DNA from: Escherichia phage E20
Strand: one strand, 5' to 3'
DNA: 64,000 bases
Sequence record: OP745616
Position numbers and translations under genes: made by a program. Shown in pieces: positions 75 through 47,496 of this stretch. Position 1 is the first letter of the stretch. Every line of letters begins with the position of its first letter. Under the pieces are notes generated by a model, which searched no databases, was not told where the DNA came from, and saw only the letters and a program-made list of their open reading frames with translations.

Positions 75-398
75 ATGACTACTACCGCTACTGTACGTAT
101 GACCGCAGGAACTTTACTTGGTACTGTTAACTCTGCTGCTACTACTGTTGCAGATACATTTGGTACTGCTACTAAAGCAGTAGGTATGCTTAACTCATAT
201 GTATCTACTATGGCAGAGAAACAAGCCATTCGTACTAAATTAGAAATGCATACATTCGTAAACAAATTAGCTGAAGAAACAGCTATGAACGAGACTATGC
301 GTAAGAAAAGTATCGAAGAATTCTGCAAAGATTCAGAGAACGCTCGTATCTATAACGCAGAATATTCCAAAGTAATCGACATCCTGACTAAAGACTAA
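75..398 (+). CDS. Hypothetical early protein (107 aa)
   Basis: First ORF after hairpin promoter 1; followed by a rho-independent terminator. Confidence 0.5.
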   Translation: MTTTATVRMTAGTLLGTVNSAATTVADTFGTATKAVGMLNSYVSTMAEKQAIRTKLEMHTFVNKLAEETAMNETMRKKSIEEFCKDSENARIYNAEYSKVIDILTKD

Positions 399-963: not shown

Positions 964-1075
964 CTTTGGATGATTTATGCATCCACTAATCATTGAAATC
1001 TTAAGTCTTTTCTTGGGTTTAGTCACCGACGGACAAACCCATAAATCAAACAATCATTTATCTGGAGAGTACAAA

Positions 1076-1459
1076 ATGTCTATTCAAAAATTCACTTTCG
1101 GTCAATCTAACCCTGCTGCTACCACTGAAACTAAAACTGCTAAGCCTAAAGCTCAGTTCTGGTTGAACATTGGTTATATTGCTAATGAAGGCTCTGAAGA
1201 TGAGAAGTTCATCTCTCTGCCTACTGGTATTCCACTGGATACTCAGGAACCACTGCCTACTAATAGCAGCAATGCTGACTTCCGTGCTATGCGTTGTGCA
1301 CAGAACGACTTGCTGGAACAGTTAATCGAATATGCTCAGAACCTGGAACCAGGTGAAGAAGGTATCATTAACCTGCAAGTTCAACTACGTCGTGTGAAAG
1401 CAGAGGCTGCTGACATCCCAGCAGACGAGAATAAATATGCTCGTAAACTGACTTTCTAA
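1076..1459 (+). CDS. Hypothetical early protein (127 aa; ORF track gives 977 as longest start)
   Basis: In-frame ATG at 1076 preceded by GGAGAG RBS; downstream of hairpin promoter 2. Confidence 0.5.
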
Positions 1460-2453: not shown

Positions 2454-2490
2454 GAATAGTTAGTTATGTATTTAAATAGGAGAAAGAGCC

Positions 2491-2805: not shown

Positions 2806-3025
2806 TGATGTAATAGTAGGTAATGAAATATTCGTTAACCGAAAAGGTTATGCACGAATTAAGCTAAAGAGTACTAACAGAACTATTGTTCGTAAGGTGT
2901 ACTCTAAACCTTTTAGTAATTTCTCTATTGATGAGGTGCGTATTAATAACAAAATGTACCTCATAGATAGTAAAGTATCTGTATGCCATACAGACGGTAA
3001 AACCTCACTTGAATATGCTTATTAA
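2792..3025 (+). CDS. Hypothetical protein (77 aa)
   Basis: ORF overlapping previous stop. Confidence 0.4.
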   Translation: MNNLSDVIVGNEIFVNRKGYARIKLKSTNRTIVRKVYSKPFSNFSIDEVRINNKMYLIDSKVSVCHTDGKTSLEYAY

Positions 3026-3037
3026 GGAATAAACAAA

Positions 3038-3259
3038 ATGTTGTTCAGCACTAATTATGGTATTTGCCCGATTTGCAATAAAGGAAGAGGAGTTGCTAAT
3101 CATAAGAAGTGTAGTCGTATCCTACAGAAACAACGGAACCAGGAAGAATGGGATAAGTTGTTAAATAATCAGCATAAAGAAGAGAACCAACAGATGGCTG
3201 TTAAGGCATCTACTCAACGTATTCGCCGTATTAACTATATACAGGGGTATCAGAAATGA
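3038..3259 (+). CDS. Hypothetical small protein with CxxC zinc-ribbon-like motif (73 aa)
   Basis: CPICNKG...HKKC pattern. Confidence 0.45.
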   Translation: MLFSTNYGICPICNKGRGVANHKKCSRILQKQRNQEEWDKLLNNQHKEENQQMAVKASTQRIRRINYIQGYQK

Positions 3260-3612
3260 AACTAATTGTAGCTGGGGGACGTGACTTCACTGACACCAAT
3301 CGTATGATTGCTGAATTACAGAAGCTAGTAGAATCAGGTGAAATAACTGATTCACCTGAACTTGTATGTGGTATGGCTCGAGGAGCAGATATGCTTGCAT
3401 ATAGTCTCTGGGCTAATAACCGTATGCCTATCCACAACTTCCCAGCAAACTGGAATAAGCATGGAAAGTCTGCTGGTTATAAACGTAATCAGGAAATGGG
3501 TGAATTTGCAGATGCTGCTGTATGTTTCTGGGATGGTAATTCCAAAGGAACCAAGCACATGATTGATATCATGAATAGGCTTAATAAACCTGTATACATT
3601 GTGAGGTACTGA
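3256..3612 (+). CDS. SLOG/DUF2493-like Rossmann-fold protein (118 aa)
   Basis: MKLIVAGGRDF ... GMARGADMLAYSWA ... CFWDG pattern typical of the DprA/LOG-like phage family. Confidence 0.5.
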   Translation: MKLIVAGGRDFTDTNRMIAELQKLVESGEITDSPELVCGMARGADMLAYSLWANNRMPIHNFPANWNKHGKSAGYKRNQEMGEFADAAVCFWDGNSKGTKHMIDIMNRLNKPVYIVRY

Positions 3613-3870
3613 GTGATTATTACATTCCCTGTAACTAAATCATTTAACTATATGGGACAAACTATTGAAGTCCCATTATGGGTTAAATATGTAGCATTAT
3701 TACCTCGTCCTCAGAAAAGCAAGAATGCCTCACTAATTGGATTTAGTAGAAAGCCTAAGCTAACCGAAAACTGTATTTGGAAGTCTAGTGGTAGACAAGA
3801 GGAAATTGGTTTTTGTGACTATGTGCTTCAACCAAATACAGTATATCTAACTCTGGAGAAAGTAGAGTGA
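3613..3870 (+). CDS. Hypothetical protein (85 aa)
   Basis: ORF, GTG or ATG start. Confidence 0.4.
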   Translation: MIITFPVTKSFNYMGQTIEVPLWVKYVALLPRPQKSKNASLIGFSRKPKLTENCIWKSSGRQEEIGFCDYVLQPNTVYLTLEKVE

Positions 3871-4841: not shown

Positions 4842-5072
4842 ATGGCAGTATCCATTCAGGAAATCATTGTTAAAAGGCACAAGAGAAAATGGGAAAGCTA
4901 TTACAAGCTAAAAGAGGTAATTAATGCTGCTTACCTTAGTGAAGAAGGTTATGCCTGGGTTGAACTAAATAGTGTATGGCCTTGGAGACATAACATCTAT
5001 ACAGACAGTTTAATCATATTCTACAGCTATGCGAATGAGCATAGTGGTAGGCGTCTAATTGCAAGAATGTAA
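4842..5072 (+). CDS. Hypothetical protein (76 aa)
   Basis: First ORF after hairpin promoter 3. Confidence 0.45.
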   Translation: MAVSIQEIIVKRHKRKWESYYKLKEVINAAYLSEEGYAWVELNSVWPWRHNIYTDSLIIFYSYANEHSGRRLIARM

Positions 5073-5094
5073 TTAACTAATTGGAGAATATGCG

Positions 5095-5913
5095 ATGTAC
5101 TCATCAATAGAACATCAGAAGCAGCTTGAAGTCCTATTCAATAAAAATCAATTACTGCCTCGCATGAGGAAGGAATTCGAGGACTCCAAAGAAATTGACT
5201 TTAAGGCATTCGCTGCCTATTTAGAAATTGATTATAAGCTGCTCATTGATGCAATGGTGCAGATTGCCCTACATAAACGTGCTGACATCCAGACTATGAT
5301 TGGCTCTCTCATGAGTCACTCAGATGATGCTCAGTACATCGCTGACTGTCTATATAAGATGGCAGAGAATGACTGCTTCAACTATGACCCTACCATCGAC
5401 AAATTCGGTGTTATCTATGAGATTAGTGAAGATGTTCAGATGGAACTGGAAGCATTCCAGTATCCATTACCTATCGTAAGTGCTCCTAAGCCTGTTCTGT
5501 GTAACCGTGATACAGGTTACTACGAAAGCAGAGGCAGCATCATCCTCAAGAAGAATCATCATGAAATGGACGTCTGCCTTGACCACATCAACCGTATGAA
5601 CAATCAACGTCTCTGTATTAACTGGGACGTTGCCAACTATGTAAAAGACTCTCGTCCTAACATGGATAAACCCAAAGAGGGGGAAACCCGTCAGGACTAT
5701 GAGAAACGTGTTAAAGCCTTTGAGAAGTACAGTCGTACTGCTAAGGAAGTAATGGAGTTAGTAACTCAAGAAGGCAATAACTTCTCACTAGCACATAAGT
5801 ACGATAAGAGGGGCAGAACCTATGCCTGTGGATACCATATCAATTTTCAAGGGACTTCATATAACAAGGCAGTGATTGAATTTGCTGATAAGGAGCTGGT
5901 AAACGATGATTAA
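5095..5913 (+). CDS. RNAPII N-terminal (small) subunit of a split T7-like RNA polymerase (N4 gp15-like), 272 aa
   Basis: Size and position immediately upstream of the catalytic subunit; N4 RNAPII is a heterodimer of roughly 270 and 400 aa. Confidence 0.65.
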   Translation: MYSSIEHQKQLEVLFNKNQLLPRMRKEFEDSKEIDFKAFAAYLEIDYKLLIDAMVQIALHKRADIQTMIGSLMSHSDDAQYIADCLYKMAENDCFNYDPTIDKFGVIYEISEDVQMELEAFQYPLPIVSAPKPVLCNRDTGYYESRGSIILKKNHHEMDVCLDHINRMNNQRLCINWDVANYVKDSRPNMDKPKEGETRQDYEKRVKAFEKYSRTAKEVMELVTQEGNNFSLAHKYDKRGRTYACGYHINFQGTSYNKAVIEFADKELVNDD

Positions 5914-6054
5914 TAAACGTGCAGTAGAAGACTTCTATGCTCATAGAGAGTTGGTACTGAAACGCATCAATGAAGCAATGAAACGTGAGGCTGAAGCTAA
6001 AGCTAAGCATAACCGTAAATAAATCCAAATGCGAGCCAAGAGGACTAATCTCAA

Positions 6055-6297
6055 ATGAGTAAGCTATTAAAACTGTGGTTAATTAGCCAAAGTGAAAACC
6101 GTGGGCATGACTCCTTTGATTCTGCTGTTGTAGCAGCCTACACAGAGGAAGAAGCTAAACAAATTAATCCAGACGGAGAATGGAAACTATACACCGCCTG
6201 GTGTTCTTCACCAGATAAAGTACATGTTGAGTACCTGGGTATTGCCACCGAAGGCGTGGAACCAGGAATAGTATTGTCATCATTTAATGCTGGTTAA
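6055..6297 (+). CDS. Hypothetical protein (80 aa)
   Basis: ORF between the two RNAPII genes. Confidence 0.45.
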   Translation: MSKLLKLWLISQSENRGHDSFDSAVVAAYTEEEAKQINPDGEWKLYTAWCSSPDKVHVEYLGIATEGVEPGIVLSSFNAG

Positions 6298-6351
6298 TCA
6301 TCCAATAAGCAGGCTCTCCATAGTGGGGAGCCAAGAAGCGAGGAATATACA

Positions 6352-7569
6352 ATGCAACTGTTAACTGCCCGTGAATACCTGAAAGTAGATGTCGCTAACA
6401 ACTATGGCTTAGATAAAAAGACATGGGATGAACGTATTAGCTGGTTCGATGAGAACGAAGCTAATCTGCTCAATCTGGTAGATGAAGCTGAAGAATCTGC
6501 ACTGTTCTATGCTGGTGTAAACGCATGGAAAGATATGAAAGCTGGTAAGCCTATTGGTTATGCCGTAGCTCTGGATGCTACATCATCTGGCTTACAGTTA
6601 CTGGCTTGCCTGACTGGTGACCGTTCTGCTGCTGAACTGTGTAACGTAGTTAACTACATGGGCAAGAATGGTAAGCCATTACGTCGTGATGCTTATACAG
6701 TTATCTATCATAAGATGCTGGACATCCTTGGTGAAGCATCTCGTATTAAACGTAGTGACACCAAGCAGGCAGTTATGACTGCATTCTATGGTTCAGAAGC
6801 TAAACCTAAAGAAGTATTCGGTGAAGGTATCCGTCTCAAGACTTTTGAGAATGTAATGGAAACTGTTGCTAGTGGACCTTGGGCATTGAACAAGTTCTTA
6901 CTGCAATGTGGTAACCCAGACGCTAACCGTTATGTATGGGTATTGCCTGACAACTTCCATGCTGTCATTAAAGTTATGGTTCCTGAAGTACAGACTGTTA
7001 ACTTCTTAGGTAAGCCATTCGACATCACTCGTATGGTCCAAGGTACTGAAGAGAAGACCCGTATGCTCTCTGCTAACATCACCCACTCTATTGATGGGAT
7101 GGTAGTACGTGAGATGCTGCGTCGTTGTAACTTCAACATGAACCAGGTGAACTATATTAAGTCCCTCTGTGAGGGAACCAGTGAATACATGGTTGGCTCT
7201 GATGATAACTATGAAATGGTTAACACACTGTGGTCTAACTATGAGAAGTCGGGATTCCTGTCTACCCGTATCTTTGATTATCTGGACTCTGAAACAATTG
7301 CATTGGTTGATACAGATGTAATCATGGCTATGCTCAATACCATGCCTAAGAAACCATTCCCTGTAATGACCGTACACGACTGCTTCCGTTGTCATCCTAA
7401 CTACGGTAATGACCTGCGTCGTCAGTACAATCAGATTCTGTCTGACATTGCTAAGAGTGACCTACTGGGCTTCATCCTGTCTCAGGTACTGGGACAAGAG
7501 TTCTCTGCTGGTAAGCTGGATGACAGCCTTTGGCAGGACATCCTTGAAACAGATTATGCATTAAGTTAA
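6352..7569 (+). CDS. RNAPII catalytic subunit, T7-like single-subunit RNAP palm/fingers (N4 gp16-like), 405 aa
   Basis: T7 RNAP motif A-like DATSSGLQ, motif B-like RSDTKQAVMTAFYGS, motif C-like TVHDCF. Confidence 0.85.
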   Translation: MQLLTAREYLKVDVANNYGLDKKTWDERISWFDENEANLLNLVDEAEESALFYAGVNAWKDMKAGKPIGYAVALDATSSGLQLLACLTGDRSAAELCNVVNYMGKNGKPLRRDAYTVIYHKMLDILGEASRIKRSDTKQAVMTAFYGSEAKPKEVFGEGIRLKTFENVMETVASGPWALNKFLLQCGNPDANRYVWVLPDNFHAVIKVMVPEVQTVNFLGKPFDITRMVQGTEEKTRMLSANITHSIDGMVVREMLRRCNFNMNQVNYIKSLCEGTSEYMVGSDDNYEMVNTLWSNYEKSGFLSTRIFDYLDSETIALVDTDVIMAMLNTMPKKPFPVMTVHDCFRCHPNYGNDLRRQYNQILSDIAKSDLLGFILSQVLGQEFSAGKLDDSLWQDILETDYALS

Positions 7570-7575
7570 TAAACT

Positions 7576-7611
7576 GGCCTCATACCTTCGGGTATGGGGC
7601 TTTTATTTTTT
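7576..7611 (+). terminator. Rho-independent terminator
   Basis: GCCTCATACC-TTCG-GGTATGGGGC then TTTTATTTTTT. Confidence 0.7.
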
Positions 7612-7613
7612 GC

Positions 7614-7811
7614 TTGGAGGTAGTCAACATGCCAGACATCTATGATGTTATTACTAAAACCGTACTGATAGTTTTATCTGCTATTGTGATACTCACTATA
7701 GTTAACGCCCACAAATCCAAGTTTGCTTATTGCTACTATGGAGCATACTCTGCCGGATGTTTTGTATTAGCCGGTTGGATAGCTTACTGGATTTACCACA
7801 TCAACAACTAG
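7614..7811 (+). CDS. Small membrane protein (65 aa)
   Basis: Hydrophobic segments; bracketed by two terminators. Confidence 0.45.
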   Translation: MEVVNMPDIYDVITKTVLIVLSAIVILTIVNAHKSKFAYCYYGAYSAGCFVLAGWIAYWIYHINN

Positions 7812-7840
7812 CCACCCTCAAGGGTGGCTTTCTTTTTTAT
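7811..7840 (+). terminator. Rho-independent terminator
   Basis: GCCACCCT-CAA-GGGTGGC then TTTCTTTTTT. Confidence 0.7.
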
Positions 7841-7885: not shown

Positions 7886-8719
7886 ATGCCAACCCTAAAG
7901 ATTGCGTTTAATAAAACTACCAACGTTGCTACCGTGCTTGATTCAGGTGGCAGTGTTCCAGGTGGTTCCGTGGAAGTAGGTACTTTTGAACATCCAGATG
8001 CCACTTACCCTGATAGCTTAGTTATCTATCACGGTGTTCGTGACCTGTTGTATAAACGTTCTGCTAAAAACCCTGCTGAAGAAGGCTTCTGGCCTGACAA
8101 CATCGTGGATATGCAATCGGTCACTATCGACATGCAAGCTACTCCACGACTGACTGTTGCTACCAAACTGCCTCGTGTAGTCTCTGCCATCGAAGGAGTA
8201 GATGTTAACTGGCATATTGATGTAGCAGGTGGTAAAGCACCATTTACTTATAAGTGGCAATTCAAAGCTGATACTGCTGGTGCAGTATTCACTGATATTG
8301 ATTCTGGTGATAACGCATCTGCTATCACTGCAACATTGACCCTTAGTAACGTAACAGCTGCTTCTGCCGGTACTTATAAAGTGATTGTTACTGATGCTAA
8401 TGGAACCACGGTAGAAGATACCTCGTTGCTGGCTGTAGGTTACTACGAAGCAAGTTCACTGGTAGCTACTCCTACTTCACTGGCTCTGTCTGTTGCTGAA
8501 GATCTCGCCGCTGGCAAGACTGTAACCATTGCTGCTATGCCTGTTGGTTCATCTGCTGGTACTTTGTCTATCAAGACTGCTCCAGATTCTGCCCGTGCTA
8601 CAGCTACCATTGCTGGTAACGTACTGACAGTTAAACCTGTGGCTGCTGGTGATGCTACTTCTGTTGTAGTTACCAACGGTACTGTCGATGTAACCATCGC
8701 TGTTACTGTTGCAGAGTAA
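7886..8719 (+). CDS. Ig-like (BIG2-type) domain protein, putative capsid decoration protein (N4 gp17-like), 277 aa
   Basis: Two Ig-like stretches (TYKWQF...SAGTYKVIVTDANGTT; TVKPVAAGDATSVVVTNGTVDVTI); syntenic with N4 gp17, directly after RNAPII. Confidence 0.55.
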   Translation: MPTLKIAFNKTTNVATVLDSGGSVPGGSVEVGTFEHPDATYPDSLVIYHGVRDLLYKRSAKNPAEEGFWPDNIVDMQSVTIDMQATPRLTVATKLPRVVSAIEGVDVNWHIDVAGGKAPFTYKWQFKADTAGAVFTDIDSGDNASAITATLTLSNVTAASAGTYKVIVTDANGTTVEDTSLLAVGYYEASSLVATPTSLALSVAEDLAAGKTVTIAAMPVGSSAGTLSIKTAPDSARATATIAGNVLTVKPVAAGDATSVVVTNGTVDVTIAVTVAE

Positions 8720-36635: not shown

Positions 36636-36666
36636 AGCCCCTCCTTTGAGGGGCTTTTTTATTTTA
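36636..36666. terminator. Bidirectional terminator at the convergent junction of plus-strand genes and minus-strand late genes
   Basis: AGCCCCTC-CTTT-GAGGGGCT flanked by A-rich upstream and TTTTTTATTTT downstream; overlaps vRNAP stop. Confidence 0.7.
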
Positions 36667-39600
36667 GTTTACTAAGTTCATCCAAGGGTTCAGGTTGTGA
36701 GCACGAAGACCCTGACCAAAGCCCCAAGAGTAATCCAGACTACCCTTAGCAGCAATACTAAAGATGTTGTCCTGAATAGGTAAGCCAACGTTACCAAACA
36801 TGGTAGGGGTTGGAGCCAGCATCGCCATTGCTGCATGAACCGGGTTGTTACGAATCATGGACACTGCAACCTTAGCTGAACGAATCTTAAAGTTGTAGAA
36901 CCACATCAAACCAACACTTTCCATATACCCACGGAAGCGACCTGGTAAACGGTCATAGTTAACGAACTCTTCCGTTACACGTCCCAGTGCTTCTTCACGA
37001 GTCTTACCTTTACGCTGAGTCAGTTCATCATAGATGATTGCTTTAGCGATGAAGTCGGAGTACTCAACAGTCTTCTGGATACCCTGGAACAAAGCAGTAT
37101 CCTTAGTGATAAGTGCATAACGACCAGCAGTACGTACAGACTTAGGTAATTTATCAGCCAGCTTTTCCATGTATTCGTGAAGTTTGCCCTCAGTAATCAA
37201 GATGTCATCACGACCAATACCAGCATCTGCAATTGAAGAGAACTCACCTGCTTCTAACAGAGGCCAGATACTCATACGCTTATGGCTATCAGTAATAGAC
37301 TGAATTTCAGCCTTAAGTTTACGAATCTGGTTCGGGTTAGTAGCTGCACGTAATTCTGCTTCTGCATCTACCTGACGCAGACGAGATTTAAGATACTGGT
37401 TAATCTCAGCAGTTTTCTGTGGAATGCTCTTAGCAATATTCTTAACAGGTACACCACGAGCAACCATCTGGTAAAGGTTAGCCAAGAAGTTAACAGCAGG
37501 TACGACTACTGACTTAACTACAATCAGCGTCTTAGCTTCTTTAACTAAGTTTTGAACCAGGTTCTCACCACCCATTGTGTACTTATAAGCACGGTTGCCA
37601 AATACACCCAGCATAGCTTTCTTGAAGGTATCCAATGTTTCCGGGGACCAACGAGAATTACCTGACCAGGCATCTCCAACGGAAGCTGCACGATAACCTA
37701 GTGCATCATTCAGCATGTCACGACGTACCCACAGTTCACCTTCACCGAACAAACTCTCTGCTTTCTGGCGTGTTTCACTATTCATCAGCTTAAGAGCATC
37801 AGCAGTTACTGGGTCCAGTTTAGAACCAAGAAGGTTAACGTACTGGGACTTATTAGCAGAAGACATCTTAATGTCATTCTCATACATGCTATGCAGGTTC
37901 TCAATCAGCATATCGTTGAAACGCTGAGCCTTAGCTTCTTCCACCTGACGACCACGCCATACACCTATTGCACGGGCAAGATGGTTTTCACCTTCAATGT
38001 GTTTCAGCATGTTAGGGTCAATGGATTGTTCATAGGCAACCACATTACCTTTATCGTCATATACAGGCATCAGTGGTTCATTACCACGTTCCCCACGAGC
38101 CAATGCTTTAGTGATACGGTCTACGGAAGGCTTGTCAGTAATACGACCAGCTACCATGGAACCCATCGTAAAACCTGTGCCGATGTCTACACCACCAGCA
38201 GTATTGCGAACGTTTTGTAGGATACCCTGTGAGAAAGGAGCTTGTGCCTGTACCGGTGCAAAATAGTAGCTACGTGCTGGACCACGATTAGCGGAGCTAC
38301 CTTGATAAGTACCCAGACGTACATAGGACTTCTCAATCAAATCACCAAACTGACTATCTTCAGCAACAATCAGATTAACACCTTGTTTAGTCTCACTCGG
38401 GATATGTCCTTTGTACTGGTTCAAGGTTGCACGCATATCAGATTTGGCTTTAGCCATTTCATCTTTACGCTGACCAACCAGGTAAGAAGTAGCAAAATCC
38501 ATTCCATCAACTTCTGATTGAGCCAGTGAAGATAACATCTCACGGTCGGACTTGTTCATTGCTTCCAGTGCATACAGGGTAATCAGCTTATCCAGTTGAG
38601 CTACATCTACAGTAGAACGAGCAGCCTGACGTTCGCCCAGCATACGGGAGATTGCAGTAGCATTACGCAGCAGGTTATTACCGACTGTACCGTTAATCAT
38701 GAACTGAGCCAGTTGCTTAGATTTACGACTAATCAGAGGCCAGTTACGGCCTGCTTGTTTCTGTAAATCTGCTTCCAGCTTATTCACTTCACGGTCAACA
38801 ATCTTCTGGTCAGACAGCAAGTCACGGATTTCAGCCAGAGACATGGTGTCACGCAGAACAGCCAAATCAGTTTTACCCATACCAGTGTGCATTGCTTTCC
38901 ACTCATCGTTAGTCAGCTTACGGCTGAACTTAGATGCGATAGTGGTAGGCAGATGTTCACGGAACTGCTGACGATCTGCCTGCACCTGTGCACGCACTGC
39001 TTTAATCAAATCGTATACAGAAGCATTACTCTTAGTACGACCAGTTAAGTCATTAACCAGGTCATGGAAAGGTTGCCATACCTTACCCTGGTTCATTGCA
39101 GCCATAACACCTTCAGCTACGATTGCACCATTCTTCTCTGTAGCAATAGCAGCTATCAGTTGTGCAGCATGAGCAGCACCTTTGACCAATGGATTCTTGG
39201 TATTAGCTGCAACTTCACGAGCACTTTCTAAAGCACGGGTAGACAGTGCATCAATAGAATCCACCAGATACTGGTTAGAACGGTCAATAGCATTACCACT
39301 AGGAGTAGCAACAGAATCATATAATGACTGTGCATTGAGGCTAGTCTGCATGATTGTTTGAGCCAGTGCATCCATACCTTCCTGTACGTTGGTAGCTTTA
39401 GTGTCACCTGCTACACGGGCATTCAAGCTAGACATTGCAGCAGTACCGATGTTAGTCAGCATTGCATCAATGGTATTCCCAGATTTCTTATCTGCTTTCA
39501 TAACAGGAATGTTAGCCAGTACGTTACGTACTTCTTCGCTTACCATTGCCAGACCAACAAAGGTAGGCAGTAAGGAAGAACGACCCTGTGCGTCAAACTC

Positions 39601-42600
39601 AATATTGTTAGCACCCATGATGGTATCGAACTTCTGCTGAGCATAGTAACGGTCAGCTGGGTTAGTGCTATCCGGGTCAGCCATGAATGCTTCAACTGTC
39701 AGGTTCTTAGTAACGTGTGCATAGTATTCCTGTGCCCGAGAAAGAGCAGCCGGACTAATAGCAGCTTCAATAGCCAAAGCAGCAACGATATTAGTGAACA
39801 GGCGTTGTTCCTGCATATTCATAGTAAAGCCATGAGCCTGAACATCACGGGTTACTTTAGTTGCATTCACTACTGCATCAGAGAACTTACCTTTACGAAT
39901 TACTTGCTGTACTGGTTCAGAACCAATGTAGTTAGTAATCAGTTTGTCAAAAGTCTGTCCCAACTCTTCCAGACGGATATTGTCACCATACGCCTTGTTA
40001 TGGAACAAGGTAGTGTCTTTGGATACAGCAGCCGTAGGAGCCTGTCCACGCATAACTACAGAAGAGTTAAACAGCAAGCCGGAGAACATATCATCTGCAT
40101 TAGCAGGTGCTTTCTTACGACCAAATACCAGACGCTTGATTGCCTCATACACAGACTGAACCATAGTTTTCAATGCAGTGGTTTTCTTCTGCTTACCAAT
40201 CAGTTCACGGTTGGTTAAACCCCAAGCCATATACTCATTCAGTGCAGCAGCTTTAGCCATTGCAGGTTCAATAAAGCCATTAGACAAGTGACCGTTAATG
40301 GTATTGAGAGCATCAGCATATGCTTCACGTACTGCCGGGGATTCATTCTTAACATCCAGAGTACGGAACTGGTTCATCAGGTCTTCAATATTCTGAACTG
40401 CTTCATTAGGAGTACCCTCATAGTGAGCCAGTACAGATTCAAAAGTAGAAGCATGTACTAATTCATGAACCAGAGTCTCTAAGGAAGGGGTAACTAAGTA
40501 GATGGTCTTATCATCAAAGTTAGTCCAGCCATATGCATTACCAGCTTCGGCAGCTTCAATATCTTCTGGTGCTGGGCGAGTAATGTTCTTCTCAATAGCA
40601 TAAGCATCCAGTTGAGCAGGAGTACCGTAAACAACCTTGTAGTCTTTAGCAGCAAGGGATTTCTGTACTTCTTTCAATACTGCTTGCTGTTCAGGAGACA
40701 TCTCTTTAGCCAGCCTAGTGATAGCAGTATTGGACAGCATACGTACACCAGACTTCAGTACACGACCAACCTGTTCCATTGCTGGTACTTCTTTAACAGG
40801 TACTTCTTTCACTGGTTCTGCTTTAGCAGCACGTACTGCATCGCGACGCTTGTTTAATTCAGCATCAAACAGTTCGTTCAGCTTAGCTACTTGCTGGTCT
40901 ACAGTCAGACCTTCCAGAGAGATTTTACCGTTGTTCACATAAGGAGCACCCACAGCAGCCATCTGATCAACAGTGGTCTGTACCTGGTTCATTACTTTGT
41001 GGCGAATATCTACACCCAGAGCAATGTTACGCAGGTTACGTTCAATAAGGTTAACACCGGAATTCTTAATCATATCAATCTTATACTGCCTGTCTCCCTC
41101 AACACGACTGATATGAGAAAGCTGTTCAAAATCCAAAGCAGAACGGGCAATGTCATCAATTGTCTTATCCGACAACTTATTAAAGTCTACGTTCTTCATG
41201 AACTTAGAGAAGGAGTCATAAACATTCTTGATAGGATTACCCTGCCAAGAAGTATATACAGCCTCATTAGCTTTACGGCTTGCATCAGTGATGTCATTGA
41301 TACCAATGTTCATACCATCAAAGATTTTCAGGGTATTCTTCGGTGCACCTTTCATAGTAGAAAGGGTCTGCATCATCATGCCATCACCAGTACCAATGGT
41401 CATAAATGGAATACCTGCAACACCTGCTTGTGAAGGAGCATAGACGCTCATTGGCACACGCATACGGTCATCTAAGTTGGTAGCCAGTACTTGGTTAGCA
41501 ACATCAGTATTCTCACTACCAGCAATGTAGAAAGTTTGTGAGCCAGTCTCAATCATTGGAGCCAGTGGAGATAATGATTCCTGGATTTCATTAAGTTCTT
41601 TCTGCGTTAAGAAATCGCCCTTCTTCCAGGTTGGGTCTTTTTCTTTTTCTGCTAGTTTAGCCTGTACTGCTTGTTGGAACATATCCTGCAATACTAAAGA
41701 CTGAATTTGAGTAGCCTTCTGCAAGTTCTCAGTGGAGTGCATCAGACCTTCACCAACAGTGAACCGGATACTTTGTCTCATTGGTTCAACGAAGAAGTGC
41801 AACATATTCTCTTGTAAGTTCTTAAGGGCATCACCAGATACAGTAAACTCCTGGGGATCTAACTCACCAGTCAGAGCACCATCTACCTCCTTAATAAATA
41901 ACTTACCTTTACGCTTGGCTGGAATTTTACCAGTCAGTGCTTCCATAGAAGTAAGGAAAGTATCCAGCATAGCCTGAGCATCCGCTTCAGACGCAGCCTC
42001 CTTACCAAACATTGCCATAGCTGGGGAAATGCTAGGGTCAGCAGCACGTGCTTGCAGAACGTCACTGAGGCGTTCATAGATGGTATCAGTAATTGCACTA
42101 ACCATCTTGCCAGCAATACCACGAGCACCAGAACCATAGATGGTAATGGTCAGTGGGTTTTTAGCTATACCACGTTTCAGGTCCAGAGTACCGTCTTCAT
42201 TCAGGTTAAAGTCTTTAATGAACAGGTCCATTAACTTCTGGAGATGATTCATCTGGCTCATAATCGGAACGTTGTTACGGTAAGCACTACGTAATTCATT
42301 TAGATAGAATTGCAAACTATTGGTAGATGCTTCATATAAGTCAATGCTGTCATCATATGAATGATGTTCATTCATAGTCTTACCGGCTTTACCGAAGAAC
42401 AAGCCACCCTTAGCAGTATTCTTAATCCAATTTTGGGTGAACTTACCACCAGTCATTAATACCATTGCGTTGATTGGGCCGTTGGTTACACCATCAGCTT
42501 CGACATACAGTGGGGTATTAAAGTTGGCACGGTCATCGCTGTTCAGGTAACGGGCATATTCCATCAGAGCCATGAGAGCTACAAAGGATTTGTTATCACC

Positions 42601-45600
42601 CAGGGAGGACTTCAGAATATCTACTGCATCTGTGGGTAAGTAACCAGACTTATTAAATTCAACCATCATATCAACAGCAGGCTTCAGATTGCCTTCCAGA
42701 GCTTTGGTCAGATTTTCAGACATAGCTTCACGGGACATTTTATGTACCTTAATGCCTAATGCCTGAGCCAGTCCCAGCTGGAAGTCAGAGAACGCTTGGC
42801 TATTTTCATTACTCAGGTCAATAGTAGAGAAGGTTGGCAGAATTGCTTCACGAACCAGCTTACTGGATTGTGGGTTGTTCTTACCAAGCATCTGCATACG
42901 ACCTACTCGGGTCATGTTATAGCCATAGTGAATGGGGGTATCCAAACCATTCTCTTGTTCTTTTAGCTGATTAATTAAACCGAACAAGGAATCATATGCC
43001 ATAGATACTGATAAGTTCTTACCTTCCAGTGATTTGGCATTGTTCTTATTCAGCAAATCGGGATTAAGAGTACCAGCACCCATTAGTTCCAGAATGCTGT
43101 CTCGACCCAATGCTTCATAGAAGTTAACCATCGGCATGTGTACACGGAACTCAGTAGCCTGTTCAGCTTTCAGTGCAGCTTTCTGTTCGGGGGTATTCTT
43201 AACAGCAGGATTACGTAACTGAGTTTGGGCCACGGAAGGAATGTCGTCACCAAAGTACATTTTCTCTTCCGGATTTACCAACACAGCTTCTTCAATTGCT
43301 GTAGGGAAATTATTAATAGGGTCTTTATCAGCCAACTTATTAATAGTGTACAGACCAATAGTCTTATTAGAGTCCGGGTCAATCTCAGACACATCCAGCA
43401 TAGTCTCTGTAACTGCACCCATCTCAATGAGGGAAGACAGAATCTCTGTAGCCATTGCCACTGGAATGCCTTTTGTATAACCCAGTGGTGCATTAGGGTT
43501 ACGATTCAAACCCCAATAAGATTCAATCTTCTGAGCCAGTGAGCTAGTAGCTTCGACCAGGGTCTGGGCATTCTCAAATTCAGCCAGAATACTTTCTGGT
43601 AACAAGGATGCTTCTACTCCAGTAATGGCAGCTACGTCTTTTATGTCTTTAATGGCAGCATTCTGTGCAGCAGTCAGTCGCCATTGCAGACCAGCAAGCA
43701 CGGCAGTCTCTAACAACTGGTCATTGAACTTAAAGGTATCACCATCTTTTTCAACGATATTCAGCAGTTTGCCACCTACCCAACGGTTAGCTTCAGTACC
43801 TTCTGCAAAACGTTTACCAACGTTCTTATTAGCAAGGAACTTAGCCAGTCGTTCAGACAGAGTAGTCTTCAGTGTTTCCCCAAAGTCCATCAAATCTTGG
43901 TAACGTTCTAACACATCACCCGTGAGAGCGTTATTTTCTTTTTGAGTGAATGCTTCAAAGCGAGCAGCAGAAGACAGTGCTTGCTTAATATCAGCTAAAG
44001 GAGATTCAGAACCAATGGTACGGGACTTGGGTTCTTCTGGCAGGGTAAATGCTTTCAGGAACTGGTTCGGTGTCTTTTCATTGTTATAGACAGGGAACAC
44101 TGTTTCCATCTCAGAAAGAGGTTTGCCACCTACTGTATAATCTGCTTTTAGCTGAGCCAGCGATACTTCATCTTTCTCCACGTTGTTAGTGTTACGGCCA
44201 GAGGTATCTACACCAACCAGAATCTGTGCATTATTGGCTTCAACGAAAGATTGAACAGTATTGAATTGTTCAGCGGTCAGCTTTTGATTATCAAACAGTT
44301 GTAGGGACACAAACGGTTGTTCACTGCCTTTATAGAAAGTAGAGCGAATAGAACCAGTATCCAAAGACATATCACGATAGCCATCATGCCCAAATACGTC
44401 AGACAGGCTGATATGGTCGCCATTAGAACCAACCACAGTACCATCAGCAAACAACCACGGACTCTCTCTACGGTCACCACTCTTATTAAGAGTTTCCTGT
44501 GAAATGGTATTTTCTTTCACATAAGCATCTCTTTCAGATTCAGTAGGTTGCTCAATGGTATCCTCATTAGTGAGGGTAGCATCTACTGTTTCAGGCTTAG
44601 TAGTAGAAACTTCTTCTGTTTTTGGGCTAGTCTCCTTAGTAGGAGCAGTCTTATTTTCTACCACTGGTTTAGCTTTAGGCTGTACAGTAGTAGTGTCCTC
44701 TTGCACTGGTGCAGGAGTTTCATCAACCTGATTCACTGGTTCATTAGTCTGTTGAGACTGAGTGGCATCAAGACCACCTTGACGGAACTCTTTAACTACC
44801 TGGGCAGCAGGCTTGTTCAGACGTGAATCCAACGAGGTAACTTTCACATGAGAAACATTAAGCTCCGGGTAAGCCGTAGCAAGTGCATTAGCAATATCAG
44901 CTACGGTCTTGGCTTCCAGTCCTACTTGCTGGGCAAACTTAACAGACTTGGTATCATACGGATTGACACCGAGGCCAGTACGACTACGTACCCATTCACG
45001 GGAAGGCGAGAGAGCCTGATAATGAACAGACTTATTCTTATCCGCATTCCCCGAAATCAGATGCTCATTCAACGCTCCGACCTTATTCTGCATGTGCTGG
45101 GCGAACTTCATAAAGTCGCTCAGATAAGCGGAGGCCAAATCGAAGTTACCAGAGTTATACGCAGAACGAATGCGTTTCGCATGTTGCAACGCAGAGTACT
45201 GTCCTTCATTAGAACGAGACTCATCGGTTTTAATCTGTTTACTAACAATGTCTTGAGGACGTAAGCCTAGTTCTTCTGCTTTAGCGTCGAACTCACGTGC
45301 ACCCTGTAACAAGGCAGCAGCAGATTGCAGGGCAGCACGTTGACGATTCCCTAATGTAATCTTACCTTCACTCGCATGTTTCAGAATCATGTTAACTGAA
45401 TCTGCATCCAGTACTTCTGGAGACACATCAGCAGCCATAGCAATATTGTTTGCTTGGGCTTGATTAGCTTCTTCAGTAGCTTTCAGCTTACCTGCTTCAG
45501 CCTGTTCCTGAATCATGGAATGGATGGCACGGAATGCACGAAGTACTTTAGGGGTATTCTGTACGTTAGCCATCAGGCCAGAGAACTGGTCTACGATTGC

Positions 45601-47496
45601 AGCAGCAGGGGAACCTTGTTCCAGATTAGCCAGAGCACCCGGGTCACGGTTAATGAAGCTATCCATAGACATGATGTTGTCGTACATCTGGATTGCAGCT
45701 TCCATTTGAACGTTGGGGTCTTCGGCAGTATTAACCAAGTCAGCCATCTTCTGAATAGCTTCTACACGGTTAGTGGAACCAGAAACAGCTTCACGGATTA
45801 CTGGGTTAACTTGTTCCAGTTCTACTGGGTCAAACTTCATTGCCTGAGTTAAGTCAGCAGCATACTGGGTAGCAGCAGCTTTCTCTTCCGGAGAAATATC
45901 CATTGCATCTACTGCTTCCTGTACAGTTGCTTGTGCTTGTTCTGCCTGAGCAGCAGCTTCCTGTGCAGCAGCATTAACCGTAGCATCAGCTACAGGGGAT
46001 GCTTGTTCATTACGCTTGGCAACTTCTTCACCACGTTGAACCAGAATGTTAGTAAGAGGAGATGCAGCTTTTGCTAGTGTTTTACCAACCAGAGAAGCAC
46101 CAGCCAGGGTAGTACGAAGAGTAGGGCCAGCAGCAGCACCGGCAGCTTTAACAGTTGCACCAGGGACTTGAGCAACTCCAGCACTACCGAAGCCATAAAG
46201 TGCACCAAGACCTGCTTGCTCACCAACCCCTTTGAGGGTGTCACGGGATGCATCAACGTTTTCTTTGATTGCAGTATTCTGTGCGAACTGACCAAAGCCG
46301 GATTGAATACCTTCCTCTACAGTTTCACGCAGCATATTAGAACCAGCACCTGCCAGTGAACCTACCTTAAGTGGGTTAAGTTCAAAGCGAGATACCAGTG
46401 GGCCGGTAGCAGCAGCAACTGGAGCAGTTAAGCCAGCAGCAATGATACCTGTTTCAGATGCAGTCTGACGACGTGCTTCATCAGGAGATAAACCATCAGC
46501 AATATGCTGTTGGTAAACAGGAGACTTACTTGCCAGTTCTTGGTGGGACATCTTCATGATTTCAGAAGCAGTCTGTTGGTATGCACCACCAGCTTCCATA
46601 CCACCGATTGCAATAGCAGGTGCAGCAACACGACCAGCAGACAGTGCAACCTGTGCAGGACGTGAACCTAACCCAGCAGCTAAGGTAATACCCTTAACAG
46701 CTTTATCACCACCTACCATTACTTTACCGAGTGCAGATACACCACGAATAAGTGGACCACCGGTAAAGAGGGAACCAACACCTTCACTCAGTCCGTCAGA
46801 GGCAGCCATACCATTATCAAGTGTATTAGCAACAGAATCGAAAGCATCACGACCAATACGAGACAAGGAGGCAACCAAATCGTTCTCCCCATTTTTGATG
46901 TCTTGTTCATAAAGTTTCTGATTCTTTTGAGCAGAAATCTGGTTCTGATTCTGAACAACCTTACGGGTAGCATTCAGTGCATCAGACTGTAGATTGTGTA
47001 CGCCTTCATTCAACCAATCCATCCCGGAAGCAATGGTTGCCCCGGCATTATCATTGACCAAACCTGTGCCAAGAGCAGCAATGCCCCCAAGGGTATTAGC
47101 AACACCAAGACCAACACCAGAAAGAGTATCGCCAAATGCTTCTGCGTTAGTACGTTGTTTAGATAAGTCCTGACGTACAACATCCGCAGCATTAGCTCGG
47201 CTATTAAGAATTTGTAGACCTTGCTCATTACCGTATTTATTAATGATTTCTAATGGGGAGGCTTGAGTGAAATCTGCCTGAAGTGAACCTGGTTCGAATG
47301 CACCGATTCCAAGATTACCTACACGTCCGGTCTGGAGATTGTAAGCATTCTCTGGGGTTAATTGGAAAGGGATTTGCCCTTGTGCAGCTTGCTTCTGAGA
47401 GGTTGCAGTAGAGACATCGACTCGCTTAGCATTAGTGATGCTGTCTGCGAAACCTGCCAGACGGTCAAATGTTGACATAGCATGTTTCCTGTTCAA
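36664..47496 (-). CDS. Virion-encapsidated giant RNA polymerase (vRNAP, N4 gp50-like), 3610 aa
   Basis: Single 10.8-kb ORF; central T7-like RNAP motifs (A-like EADGVTNGPINAM, B-like KNPLTITIYGSG, C-like KIFDGMNIG); position at distal end of late operon. Confidence 0.9.
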   Translation of the reverse strand: MNRKHAMSTFDRLAGFADSITNAKRVDVSTATSQKQAAQGQIPFQLTPENAYNLQTGRVGNLGIGAFEPGSLQADFTQASPLEIINKYGNEQGLQILNSRANAADVVRQDLSKQRTNAEAFGDTLSGVGLGVANTLGGIAALGTGLVNDNAGATIASGMDWLNEGVHNLQSDALNATRKVVQNQNQISAQKNQKLYEQDIKNGENDLVASLSRIGRDAFDSVANTLDNGMAASDGLSEGVGSLFTGGPLIRGVSALGKVMVGGDKAVKGITLAAGLGSRPAQVALSAGRVAAPAIAIGGMEAGGAYQQTASEIMKMSHQELASKSPVYQQHIADGLSPDEARRQTASETGIIAAGLTAPVAAATGPLVSRFELNPLKVGSLAGAGSNMLRETVEEGIQSGFGQFAQNTAIKENVDASRDTLKGVGEQAGLGALYGFGSAGVAQVPGATVKAAGAAAGPTLRTTLAGASLVGKTLAKAASPLTNILVQRGEEVAKRNEQASPVADATVNAAAQEAAAQAEQAQATVQEAVDAMDISPEEKAAATQYAADLTQAMKFDPVELEQVNPVIREAVSGSTNRVEAIQKMADLVNTAEDPNVQMEAAIQMYDNIMSMDSFINRDPGALANLEQGSPAAAIVDQFSGLMANVQNTPKVLRAFRAIHSMIQEQAEAGKLKATEEANQAQANNIAMAADVSPEVLDADSVNMILKHASEGKITLGNRQRAALQSAAALLQGAREFDAKAEELGLRPQDIVSKQIKTDESRSNEGQYSALQHAKRIRSAYNSGNFDLASAYLSDFMKFAQHMQNKVGALNEHLISGNADKNKSVHYQALSPSREWVRSRTGLGVNPYDTKSVKFAQQVGLEAKTVADIANALATAYPELNVSHVKVTSLDSRLNKPAAQVVKEFRQGGLDATQSQQTNEPVNQVDETPAPVQEDTTTVQPKAKPVVENKTAPTKETSPKTEEVSTTKPETVDATLTNEDTIEQPTESERDAYVKENTISQETLNKSGDRRESPWLFADGTVVGSNGDHISLSDVFGHDGYRDMSLDTGSIRSTFYKGSEQPFVSLQLFDNQKLTAEQFNTVQSFVEANNAQILVGVDTSGRNTNNVEKDEVSLAQLKADYTVGGKPLSEMETVFPVYNNEKTPNQFLKAFTLPEEPKSRTIGSESPLADIKQALSSAARFEAFTQKENNALTGDVLERYQDLMDFGETLKTTLSERLAKFLANKNVGKRFAEGTEANRWVGGKLLNIVEKDGDTFKFNDQLLETAVLAGLQWRLTAAQNAAIKDIKDVAAITGVEASLLPESILAEFENAQTLVEATSSLAQKIESYWGLNRNPNAPLGYTKGIPVAMATEILSSLIEMGAVTETMLDVSEIDPDSNKTIGLYTINKLADKDPINNFPTAIEEAVLVNPEEKMYFGDDIPSVAQTQLRNPAVKNTPEQKAALKAEQATEFRVHMPMVNFYEALGRDSILELMGAGTLNPDLLNKNNAKSLEGKNLSVSMAYDSLFGLINQLKEQENGLDTPIHYGYNMTRVGRMQMLGKNNPQSSKLVREAILPTFSTIDLSNENSQAFSDFQLGLAQALGIKVHKMSREAMSENLTKALEGNLKPAVDMMVEFNKSGYLPTDAVDILKSSLGDNKSFVALMALMEYARYLNSDDRANFNTPLYVEADGVTNGPINAMVLMTGGKFTQNWIKNTAKGGLFFGKAGKTMNEHHSYDDSIDLYEASTNSLQFYLNELRSAYRNNVPIMSQMNHLQKLMDLFIKDFNLNEDGTLDLKRGIAKNPLTITIYGSGARGIAGKMVSAITDTIYERLSDVLQARAADPSISPAMAMFGKEAASEADAQAMLDTFLTSMEALTGKIPAKRKGKLFIKEVDGALTGELDPQEFTVSGDALKNLQENMLHFFVEPMRQSIRFTVGEGLMHSTENLQKATQIQSLVLQDMFQQAVQAKLAEKEKDPTWKKGDFLTQKELNEIQESLSPLAPMIETGSQTFYIAGSENTDVANQVLATNLDDRMRVPMSVYAPSQAGVAGIPFMTIGTGDGMMMQTLSTMKGAPKNTLKIFDGMNIGINDITDASRKANEAVYTSWQGNPIKNVYDSFSKFMKNVDFNKLSDKTIDDIARSALDFEQLSHISRVEGDRQYKIDMIKNSGVNLIERNLRNIALGVDIRHKVMNQVQTTVDQMAAVGAPYVNNGKISLEGLTVDQQVAKLNELFDAELNKRRDAVRAAKAEPVKEVPVKEVPAMEQVGRVLKSGVRMLSNTAITRLAKEMSPEQQAVLKEVQKSLAAKDYKVVYGTPAQLDAYAIEKNITRPAPEDIEAAEAGNAYGWTNFDDKTIYLVTPSLETLVHELVHASTFESVLAHYEGTPNEAVQNIEDLMNQFRTLDVKNESPAVREAYADALNTINGHLSNGFIEPAMAKAAALNEYMAWGLTNRELIGKQKKTTALKTMVQSVYEAIKRLVFGRKKAPANADDMFSGLLFNSSVVMRGQAPTAAVSKDTTLFHNKAYGDNIRLEELGQTFDKLITNYIGSEPVQQVIRKGKFSDAVVNATKVTRDVQAHGFTMNMQEQRLFTNIVAALAIEAAISPAALSRAQEYYAHVTKNLTVEAFMADPDSTNPADRYYAQQKFDTIMGANNIEFDAQGRSSLLPTFVGLAMVSEEVRNVLANIPVMKADKKSGNTIDAMLTNIGTAAMSSLNARVAGDTKATNVQEGMDALAQTIMQTSLNAQSLYDSVATPSGNAIDRSNQYLVDSIDALSTRALESAREVAANTKNPLVKGAAHAAQLIAAIATEKNGAIVAEGVMAAMNQGKVWQPFHDLVNDLTGRTKSNASVYDLIKAVRAQVQADRQQFREHLPTTIASKFSRKLTNDEWKAMHTGMGKTDLAVLRDTMSLAEIRDLLSDQKIVDREVNKLEADLQKQAGRNWPLISRKSKQLAQFMINGTVGNNLLRNATAISRMLGERQAARSTVDVAQLDKLITLYALEAMNKSDREMLSSLAQSEVDGMDFATSYLVGQRKDEMAKAKSDMRATLNQYKGHIPSETKQGVNLIVAEDSQFGDLIEKSYVRLGTYQGSSANRGPARSYYFAPVQAQAPFSQGILQNVRNTAGGVDIGTGFTMGSMVAGRITDKPSVDRITKALARGERGNEPLMPVYDDKGNVVAYEQSIDPNMLKHIEGENHLARAIGVWRGRQVEEAKAQRFNDMLIENLHSMYENDIKMSSANKSQYVNLLGSKLDPVTADALKLMNSETRQKAESLFGEGELWVRRDMLNDALGYRAASVGDAWSGNSRWSPETLDTFKKAMLGVFGNRAYKYTMGGENLVQNLVKEAKTLIVVKSVVVPAVNFLANLYQMVARGVPVKNIAKSIPQKTAEINQYLKSRLRQVDAEAELRAATNPNQIRKLKAEIQSITDSHKRMSIWPLLEAGEFSSIADAGIGRDDILITEGKLHEYMEKLADKLPKSVRTAGRYALITKDTALFQGIQKTVEYSDFIAKAIIYDELTQRKGKTREEALGRVTEEFVNYDRLPGRFRGYMESVGLMWFYNFKIRSAKVAVSMIRNNPVHAAMAMLAPTPTMFGNVGLPIQDNIFSIAAKGSLDYSWGFGQGLRAHNLNPWMNLVN

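Follow-up and report, generated by a model that had tools for sequence, protein, structure and literature searches.

RNA polymerase II (RNAPII) of phage N4 has been a subject of genetics since the late 1970s, and since 2002 it has been known as a cloned and sequenced heterodimer. Its biochemistry and its domain assignment are treated in a review of 2015 (PMC4496689), which describes N4 gp1 as an RNAPII cofactor and gp2 as a ssDNA-binding protein that recruits RNAPII, and which regards the way in which the heterodimeric form arose as unclear.

Genes for the two polymerase subunits

In the queried stretch, the window, i.e., the whole stretch of 64,000 nt that was analyzed, showed 100% identity to Escherichia phage vB_Eco_F22 (OP870143.1; Schitoviridae, Gamaleyavirus), and it is called F22 below. 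The region under study contains four ORFs, of 272, 38, 80, and 405 aa, all on the + strand. The first and the last are the polymerase genes:

5095..5913, + strand: RNAPII small subunit, N4 gp15 orthologue, "RNAP1", 272 aa (homology, PDB, PHROG, annotation)
6352..7569, + strand: RNAPII large catalytic subunit, N4 gp16 orthologue, "RNAP2", 405 aa (homology, Pfam, motifs, annotation)

The two genes are separate, adjacent, and co-oriented, with the small-subunit gene first; they lie 438 bp apart, and each has its own stop codon, Shine-Dalgarno (SD) sequence, and ATG. Judged from the sequence, there is a probability of about 0.96 that they encode both subunits of an N4-type RNA polymerase II, a split T7-family RNAP, and no observation speaks against this. 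Demonstrated for F22 are homology, conservation of motifs and residues, non-overlapping mapping onto T7 RNAP, presence of the cofactors and of the virion RNAP, and purifying selection. OP870143.1 already labels 5095-5913 as RNA polymerase subunit B (F22_0018) and 6352-7569 as subunit A (F22_0021). The finding is an ordinary one, as the enzyme is labelled in GenBank for this phage and the counterpart from N4 has been crystallized and its structure solved.

The 272-aa protein aligned with N4 gp15 over its full length and nearly without gaps (65% identity over 268 aa, E = 1e-135), and the stop codon of its gene falls exactly at the N4 gp15 end position. It matched chain A of the N4 RNAPII crystal structure (PDB 6dt7, E = 1.2e-117) and phrog_2166, "N4-like RNA polymerase" (E = 5e-116), while a Pfam search of the small subunit gave no match. 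Residues 125-272 were aligned to T7 RNAP 269-455 by hhalign (E = 8e-6), and BLASTP aligned the protein to T7 270-455 (E = 4e-4). According to published domain boundaries, this T7 segment comprises the final portion of the N-terminal domain, then the thumb, and then the initial segment of the palm, which includes the DxxGR motif. This motif is important for catalysis and is present in the small subunit as D237-K-R-G-R241. The same three elements are assigned to the small subunit, in which the thumb is shortened; these domain statements are based on the 2015 review (PMC4496689) and on the alignments made here. A sequence-only reading of the region had regarded this protein as the probable source of the N-terminal domain. 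It was right in regarding the protein as an RNAP fragment, but the fragment is not simply that domain, as the match is to T7 269-455. Residues 1-124 had no detectable match to T7 1-268 in hhalign, so that equating them with the T7 N-terminal domain relies on what the literature and the structure of N4 show. A lack of RNAP similarity, which would speak against a split polymerase, was not found, because the 272-aa protein resembles T7-family RNAPs in the phrog_2166, BLASTP, and hhalign matches, which go far beyond what chance would give.

The 405-aa protein was likewise nearly gapless and full-length in its alignment to N4 gp16 (69% identity over 405 aa), and it matched chain B of PDB 6dt7 (E = 5.3e-194) and phrog_2051 (E = 3e-177). 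Its start (GAGGA-N7-ATG) lies exactly at the N4 gp16 start position. Pfam RNA_pol (PF00940) was found with 53.1 bits, compared to a cut-off of 22, and covers only residues 8-148. BLASTP aligned residues 9-170 to T7 459-656 (E = 3e-6) and, in a weak segment, residues 341-405 to T7 810-883 (E = 0.24). The catalytic motifs A, B, and C had all been placed in this protein by the sequence-only reading, and the residue mapping onto T7 bears this out: D75 corresponds to T7 D537 (motif A), R134/K138/Y146 to R627/K631/Y639 (motif B), and H342/D343 to H811/D812 (motif C), the position of motif C being set by the weak BLASTP segment together with exact conservation with N4 gp16. The C-terminal ...DYALS matches ...DFAFA of T7.

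Alignment to N4 gp15/gp16 and to T7 RNAP, which had been proposed as a check, thus showed matches to both for each subunit, and the two subunits map onto non-overlapping parts of T7 RNAP. The proposed fit to the heterodimeric N4 RNAPII was borne out by the end-to-end alignments with gp15, gp16, and the two 6DT7 chains. The catalytic core does not lie in one polypeptide, as DxxGR is on a different chain from motifs A to C. The division of the core between two ORFs makes the pair a homologue of the PF00940 family, but a split variant.

In comparison to T7, the enzyme is without the greater part of the N-terminal domain and some of the thumb, and two ORFs take the place of one, so that a decaying, fragmented, and non-functional remnant of a single-subunit RNAP could be considered. 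This is refuted by the conservation data, and we regard its probability as practically nil. All catalytic residues are intact, and pN/pS was 0.03–0.10 for both genes (0.05–0.10 for the small-subunit gene versus relatives, 0.03–0.09 for the large-subunit gene). The identical two-gene layout is conserved across the Schitoviridae, in phages of E. coli, Pseudomonas, Erwinia, Vibrio, Klebsiella, and Burkholderia, and amber mutants of N4 in either gene abolish middle transcription (PMC4496689).

The interval between the subunit genes

The interval between the two polymerase genes holds two further ORFs:

5906..6022, + strand: 38-aa ORF, F22_0019 (ORF call, GenBank annotation, copy in phage CU10EC)
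6055..6297, + strand: 80-aa ORF, phrog_5444 (PHROG match, E = 1.8e-22)

The 80-aa ORF had been predicted at this position and strand and was confirmed. A 38-aa ORF had been suspected at 5906-6023; it exists and is annotated, but it ends one base earlier. It shares its first 8 nt with the end of the small-subunit gene, it has its own AAGGAG SD sequence, and its product is highly charged and rich in K, R, and E. Family searches, including Pfam and PHROG, gave no matches. In the phage collection just one further copy exists, a 36-aa ORF that occupies the corresponding position in CU10EC and differs by 10 synonymous and 3 non-synonymous codons (pN/pS about 0.09). The 38-aa ORF is accessory cargo and not a part of the polymerase.

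For the 80-aa protein 181 homologues were found, none of which is named or has a Pfam domain. The alignment of phrog_5444 revealed an invariant C-terminal SFNAG, and pN/pS was about 0.30 versus the KKP 3715 copy. The AF2 model (pLDDT 86.5) had no significant match in a fold search against the PDB. The gene occurs in about a quarter of the Gamaleyaviruses and in unrelated phages, and the family is also found in jumbo Erwinia phages and in Rhizobium and Acinetobacter phages; the 80-aa gene is a mobile small gene. As judged from these sequence comparisons, both intervening ORFs are genuine genes on which purifying selection acts, yet they are variable and presumably dispensable cargo.

If the two polymerase ORFs were exons of one gene, with the 438-nt gap as a self-splicing intron or as a sequencing or frameshift artefact, the product would be a single chain. 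Group I introns do occur in this polymerase family: splicing of a g16 intron was shown experimentally in G7C-like phages, with the junction in QAVMTAFYGSEAK (bioRxiv 10.1101/542787), and Burkholderia phage HN02 and Vibrio phage pVco-7 have large-subunit genes interrupted by about 800 nt that gave sub-threshold Rfam Intron_gpI matches (E = 1e-3 and 3e-6, respectively). However, no Rfam match at E <= 0.1 was obtained anywhere in the F22 region, and a group I intron in the gap was rejected on this ground. The small-subunit stop and the large-subunit GAGGA-N7-ATG coincide with the gp15 end and the gp16 start, both ORFs within the gap show purifying selection of their own, and in N4 the gap is just 47 bp and the enzyme was purified and crystallized as two chains. 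An exon arrangement is thus extremely improbable, and two separate subunit genes remain the preferred reading.

Comparison with other Gamaleyaviruses revealed how differently the subunit genes and the interval behave. In most of the compared phages, which included G7C, PhAPEC5, PhAPEC7, KKP 3715, HK2, pSb-1, and Bas96, the small subunit was 95.6–96.7% and the large subunit 95–99% identical (89% in CU10EC; the pSb-1 gene aligned in two pieces with 77–79%). In contrast, the junction cargo consists of the 80-aa ORF alone in KKP 3715, a 53-aa ORF in PhAPEC5, the 36-aa ORF in CU10EC, and an HNH homing endonuclease of 193–204 aa in Bas96, HK2, and pSb-1 as well as at the G7C and PGN829.1 positions. 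Among the records examined, the combination of the 38-aa and 80-aa ORFs was found in F22 only. No fewer than six different contents occur in the slot, whereas its neighbouring genes and the large-subunit leader are nearly constant. Relationships among gap ORFs across phages were confined to the F22 38-aa/CU10EC 36-aa pair, the 80-aa family, the HNH family, and a weak pair of a 98-aa ORF of JZBo1 and a 93-aa ORF of Rexella; the 53-aa ORF of PhAPEC5 and PEV2 gp20-22 had no relation to the F22 gap ORFs in this comparison.

The position of the 80-aa ORF raises the question of whether its product, and perhaps the 38-aa product too, serves RNAPII as a lineage-specific third subunit or regulator, with its gene placed for co-expression. 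The ORF is conserved, has an invariant C-terminus, is under purifying selection, and is located between the two polymerase genes in the same orientation; furthermore, the family is found directly 5′ of the large-subunit gene in two separate N4-like lineages, F22/KKP 3715 and Klebsiella phage JZBo1 (39% identity). Nevertheless, the gp15-gp16 heterodimer of N4 is fully active although N4 lacks the gene, sister phages carry unrelated cargo in the same slot, and the record counts do not agree, with only 13 records for the 80-aa protein at a minimum identity of 60% and 53 for the large subunit at a minimum of 80%. The family is also present in phages without a nearby N4-type polymerase gene, such as Vibrio phage 1.164.O, where it lies beside tail-sheath genes, and no fold or family match ties the protein to transcription. 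A polymerase-related role is therefore improbable, and the gene is better regarded as variable cargo.

The HNH endonucleases found at the junction in N4-like phages of E. coli, Shigella, and Vibrio are homologous to one another (33–40% identity), and the family is common elsewhere in phage genomes too. The gp15/gp16 junction might be a homing site at which insertion of a free-standing homing endonuclease split an ancestral single-chain polymerase, the 38-aa and 80-aa cargo of F22 having replaced the endonuclease later. We consider this unlikely. A gene in pieces of this kind reportedly exists in Aeromonas phage Aeh1, where the free-standing homing endonuclease mobE splits nrdA. In both cases an essential enzyme is encoded by two adjacent ORFs with products that reassemble, and several F22 relatives have an HNH gene at the junction; in contrast to Aeh1, the F22 junction contains no endonuclease, and the F22-type split is ancient and universal in the family. 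In summary, the subunit junction has repeatedly taken up homing endonucleases and small genes, which could bear on the splitting of the polymerase.

Leader, hairpins, and transcription partners

Two structured elements flank the large-subunit gene:

6298..6351, + strand: leader of the large-subunit gene (conservation, fold)
7576..7611, + strand: terminator-like hairpin of 11 pairs followed by a T-run (consensus scan, pattern match only)

The leader contains a hairpin at 6312-6332 with a 9-bp stem and a 3-nt loop, GGCTCTCCA-TAG-TGGGGAGCC, followed by the GAGGA SD sequence. The z-score of the fold was -1.8 for a stretch of 76 nt, which is weak on its own. The leader is nearly identical in F22, KKP 3715, PhAPEC5, HK2, pSb-1, and CU10EC, irrespective of the upstream content; it is absent in Bas96, and the hairpin that N4 has in this position is shorter. 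The terminator-like hairpin begins 7 nt past the large-subunit stop codon.

The leader (CATCCAATAAG...hairpin) was also considered as an early promoter of the type used by the N4 virion RNAP. The N4 P2 promoter sequence was confirmed in N4 on the template (-) strand just upstream of gp2. The P2-like 11-mer of the window is on the + strand, and with 6 matches versus 2.7 expected it is not significantly repeated. The full P2 motif was searched for in the window and is absent, and the candidate was rejected. A scan for sigma-70 promoters yielded fewer sites in the region than in shuffled controls.

Three genes for transcription partners were found elsewhere in the window:

75..386 (tblastn alignment coordinates), + strand: N4 gp1 homologue, RNAPII cofactor (66% identity over 104 aa, E = 5e-44)
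977..1456 (tblastn alignment coordinates), + strand: N4 gp2 homologue, ssDNA-binding, recruits RNAPII (68% identity over 162 aa, E = 2e-73)
36664..47496, - strand: giant virion RNA polymerase, N4 gp50 orthologue, 3,610 aa (ORF and Pfam)

The 3,610-aa ORF matched Pfam N4_RNAP_helical (E = 1e-100) and additionally vRNAP_dom_2, vRNAP_dom, and vRNAP_plug. The early region of N4 is transcribed by the virion RNAP, and the RNAPII genes of the window are in the corresponding region.

For the working of the F22 enzyme, heterodimer assembly, expression timing, promoter use, and cofactor dependence are taken from N4 biochemistry. By homology with N4, both subunit genes would be early genes transcribed by the injected virion RNAP, and their two products would form a heterodimer with one active site. 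The enzyme is a minimal T7-family RNAP of 677 aa in total, compared to 883 aa in T7, with the chain broken at about T7 455-459. The small subunit contributes what is left of the N-terminal region, the shortened thumb, and the first strand of the palm, with DxxGR, and the large subunit the remaining palm and the fingers with the catalytic motifs A, B, and C. As in N4, the ssDNA-binding cofactor gp2, with gp1, is expected to bring the heterodimer to AT-rich middle promoters, from which the middle (replication) genes would be transcribed. The small ORFs in the interval are separate accessory genes in a variable slot and not parts of the polymerase.

Comparison with T7 RNAP and N4 RNAPII

DxxGR, the motif A Asp, the motif B Arg/Lys/Tyr, the motif C His-Asp, and the C-terminal aromatic tail all align between F22 and T7 RNAP. 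However, T7 RNAP is a single chain that needs no cofactors, whereas the F22 enzyme consists of two, and its break corresponds to T7 ~455/459. For most of the T7 N-terminal domain (1-268), no counterpart was detected in F22, and the thumb region is shorter, with 148 residues aligning to 187 of T7. The truncation of both regions agrees with the 2015 review (PMC4496689).

N4 RNAPII (gp15 and gp16; PDB 6DT7, 6DT8, 6DTA) differs from the F22 pair at the junction, where the 47-bp gap of N4 is empty and the F22 gap contains the 38-aa and 80-aa ORFs. The N4 enzyme is known biochemically, whereas that of F22 is known here from its sequence. A heterodimer with rifampicin-resistant, ssDNA-templated activity is established in N4 (PMC4496689; PDB 6DT7) and, at 65–69% identity, would be expected for F22 as well. 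Gene order, strand, and early-region location agree, the subunit sizes are closely similar (272 and 405 aa in F22, 269 and 404 aa in N4), every motif is found in the same subunit, and the cofactors gp1 and gp2 as well as the virion RNAP are present in both phages.

Identity of the two RNAPII genes and their mapping onto T7 RNA polymerase

The region contains four ORFs, and the outer two encode the subunits of RNAPII, the N4-type heterodimeric phage RNA polymerase that transcribes the middle genes.

ORFs of the RNAPII region (ORF list)
5095-5913, plus strand: small subunit, 272 aa
5906-6022, plus strand: 38-aa ORF
6055-6297, plus strand: 80-aa ORF
6352-7569, plus strand: large subunit, 405 aa

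Window positions 5000-7700 were 100% identical (megablast) to OP870143.1, Escherichia phage vB_Eco_F22 (F22; Schitoviridae, Enquatrovirinae, Gamaleyavirus), and the window begins 292 bases into this record. There, the labels are 'RNA polymerase subunit B' for the 272-aa ORF and 'RNA polymerase subunit A' for the 405-aa ORF; the 38-aa and 80-aa ORFs are both entered as hypothetical proteins. An unlisted 38-aa ORF had been suspected at 5906-6023; the ORF exists, but its end had been placed one base too far, and because both small ORFs are annotated in OP870143.1, it is in fact listed.

The sequence-only reading had compared the split polymerase with the heterodimeric RNAPII of N4, and this was borne out. 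The 272-aa protein showed 65% identity to N4 gp15 (268 residues, gapless), and the 405-aa protein showed 69% identity to gp16 along its full length. End to end, the two proteins matched chain A and chain B, respectively, in crystal structures of N4 RNAPII (6DT7/6DT8/6DTA; E=1.2e-117 and 5.3e-194). In PHROGs, they were assigned to phrog_2166 'N4-like RNA polymerase' (E=5e-116) and phrog_2051 'RNA polymerase' (E=3e-177), and the 405-aa protein matched Pfam RNA_pol (PF00940) with 53.1 bits at a cut-off of 22. Comparison with sister phages yielded pN/pS values of 0.03-0.10 for both subunit genes, indicating strong purifying selection.

Small-subunit residues 126-272 aligned with T7 RNAP residues 270-455 (BLASTP, E=4e-4). 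This range agreed with the hhalign result for a profile built from seven diverse small subunits, in which residues 125-272 matched T7 269-455 (E=8e-6, probability 84%), while residues 1-124 had no T7 RNAP match with the same profile. The large subunit aligned with T7 459-656 (residues 9-170; BLASTP, E=3e-6) and with T7 810-883 (residues 341-405), and its C-terminus reads DYALS versus DFAFA in T7. The DxxGR motif lies on the small subunit (D237-R241, T7 D421-R425). Motifs A (D75, T7 D537), B (R134, K138 and Y146, T7 R627, K631 and Y639) and C (H342-D343, T7 H811-D812) are all on the large subunit, as had been read from the sequence. The alignments and these landmark residues place the break in the polymerase chain at about T7 residue 455-459. 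Based on the T7 domain boundaries, we take the T7-like part of the small subunit to cover the final portion of the N-terminal domain, a thumb shorter than that of T7, and the palm's first segment, which carries DxxGR. The observation of a split polymerase was confirmed and its interpretation is supported, but the attribution of the N-terminal domain to the 272-aa protein holds only in part.

Two genes or one interrupted gene

The starts and ends of both F22 subunit ORFs coincide with those of their N4 counterparts, and the large-subunit gene has its own GAGGA-N7-ATG. A group I intron was not found in a sensitive Rfam scan across the F22 RNAPII region. In the same scan, interruptions of about 800 nt in the large-subunit genes of Burkholderia phage HN02 and Vibrio phage pVco-7 gave sub-threshold matches to Intron_gpI (E=1e-3 and 3e-6, respectively). 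In G7C-like phages, an intron in g16 has been shown experimentally, with the splice junction within QAVMTAFYGSEAK, i.e. motif B (10.1101/542787). This peptide is uninterrupted in F22.

The insertions in HN02 (locus 2430-3227) and pVco-7 (locus 2451-3308) lie near motif B and each encode a homologous HNH-like ORF of 182-187 aa, 44% identical to each other; in the records, these insertions are annotated as separate genes. Both insertions are probably group I introns like that of the G7C-like phages. In Shigella phage pSb-1 (locus 2501-3717), the record divides the large-subunit gene into two overlapping ORFs, gp55 and gp56, and tblastn gave pieces that share residues 250-325. The apparent cause is a frameshift or sequencing error, not a genuine third split.

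The junction between the subunit genes

The content of the junction between the two genes (5914-6351 in the window) differed strongly among the phages.

Content of the RNAPII junction in other phages
N4: empty, 47 bp (N4 locus 5413-5459)
KKP 3715: 80-aa ORF alone
PhAPEC5: unrelated 53-aa ORF
CU10EC: 36-aa homologue of the F22 38-aa ORF
Bas96: 193-aa HNH/NUMOD1 homing endonuclease
HK2 and pSb-1: 204-aa endonuclease
Vibrio phage pVco-7: 207-aa endonuclease
Erwinia phage Rexella: 93-aa ORF
Pseudomonas phage PEV2: three small ORFs
Klebsiella phage JZBo1: 98-aa ORF and 83-aa member of the 80-aa family

The junction is a variable cargo slot across Schitoviridae, and the flanking genes are conserved throughout. 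HNH homing endonucleases occupy it in phages of E. coli, Shigella and Vibrio, and unrelated small ORFs in others. The endonucleases of Bas96, HK2 and pVco-7 are mutual homologues (33-40% identity) from a free-standing HNH family that is widespread; in PGN829.1, this family also matches the stretch immediately before the large-subunit gene, and in G7C a comparable position. It is unlikely that the junction both serves as a homing site and owes the original split to an endonuclease insertion; this explanation bears on the whole family, not on the window itself.

The two small ORFs of F22 have the properties of real genes. An AAGGAG Shine-Dalgarno sequence precedes the 38-aa ORF, and comparison with its CU10EC homologue shows 10 codon changes that are synonymous and 3 that are not (pN/pS about 0.09); for the 80-aa ORF versus KKP 3715, pN/pS is about 0.30. 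The 80-aa protein belongs to phrog_5444, a well-conserved family of about 80 aa that is spread over unrelated phage types; in its conserved alignment, the C-terminal SFNAG is invariant and LWLISQ...DxFDSAVVAA forms an N-terminal motif. None of its 181 homologues is named or has a Pfam domain, and a confident AF2 model (pLDDT 86.5) had no significant match among solved structures. The protein is encoded between the subunit genes, and it might be an RNAPII-associated factor, but this is improbable. Close copies were present in only 13 phage records, versus 53 with a close large subunit, and the family also occurs in phages without an N4-type polymerase nearby (Vibrio myovirus, jumbo Erwinia, Rhizobium and Acinetobacter phages). 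We concluded that both small ORFs are accessory cargo in the variable slot.

Irrespective of the preceding cargo, Gamaleyaviruses share a nearly identical stretch of approximately 55 nt ahead of the large-subunit start codon.

Leader of the large-subunit gene
6298-6351: leader, directly upstream of the large-subunit start
6312-6332: hairpin with a 9-bp stem and a 3-nt loop, directly upstream of the Shine-Dalgarno sequence

The leader with this hairpin is kept in six Gamaleyaviruses, and the hairpin is absent from Bas96; N4 has a shorter, 4-bp hairpin at the equivalent position. An N4-type early promoter in the leader was ruled out by strand and motif.

The N4 transcription system in the window

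Further elements of the transcription system
75-386: homologue of the RNAPII cofactor gp1, 66% identity
977-1456: homologue of the RNAPII cofactor gp2, 68% identity
7576-7611: terminator-like hairpin and T-run, 7 nt past the large-subunit stop codon
36664-47496, minus strand: 3,610-aa ORF carrying N4 virion RNA polymerase domains (Pfam)

A perfect 8-bp palindromic hairpin at 7810-7829 (AGCCACCC-TCAA-GGGTGGCT), with a terminator score on both strands, sits between a 65-aa ORF and a 277-aa ORF (7886-8719). The latter has the position of the Hoc-like head decoration protein annotated in relatives (N4 gp17), a virion protein gene that directly follows the early polymerase genes.

With gp1, gp2 and the ORF carrying the virion polymerase domains, the whole N4 transcription scheme is present in the window. 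By homology to N4, the injected virion RNA polymerase would transcribe the early region including gp1, gp2 and both RNAPII genes. The single-stranded DNA-binding protein gp2 would then recruit the gp15-gp16-type heterodimer to AT-rich middle promoters, and the recruited heterodimer would transcribe the middle genes, as described for N4 (PMC4496689). Taken together, the two-gene RNAPII of the window is textbook knowledge for N4-like phages: the record of this genome carries the annotation, and the N4 enzyme has been characterized both biochemically and structurally.
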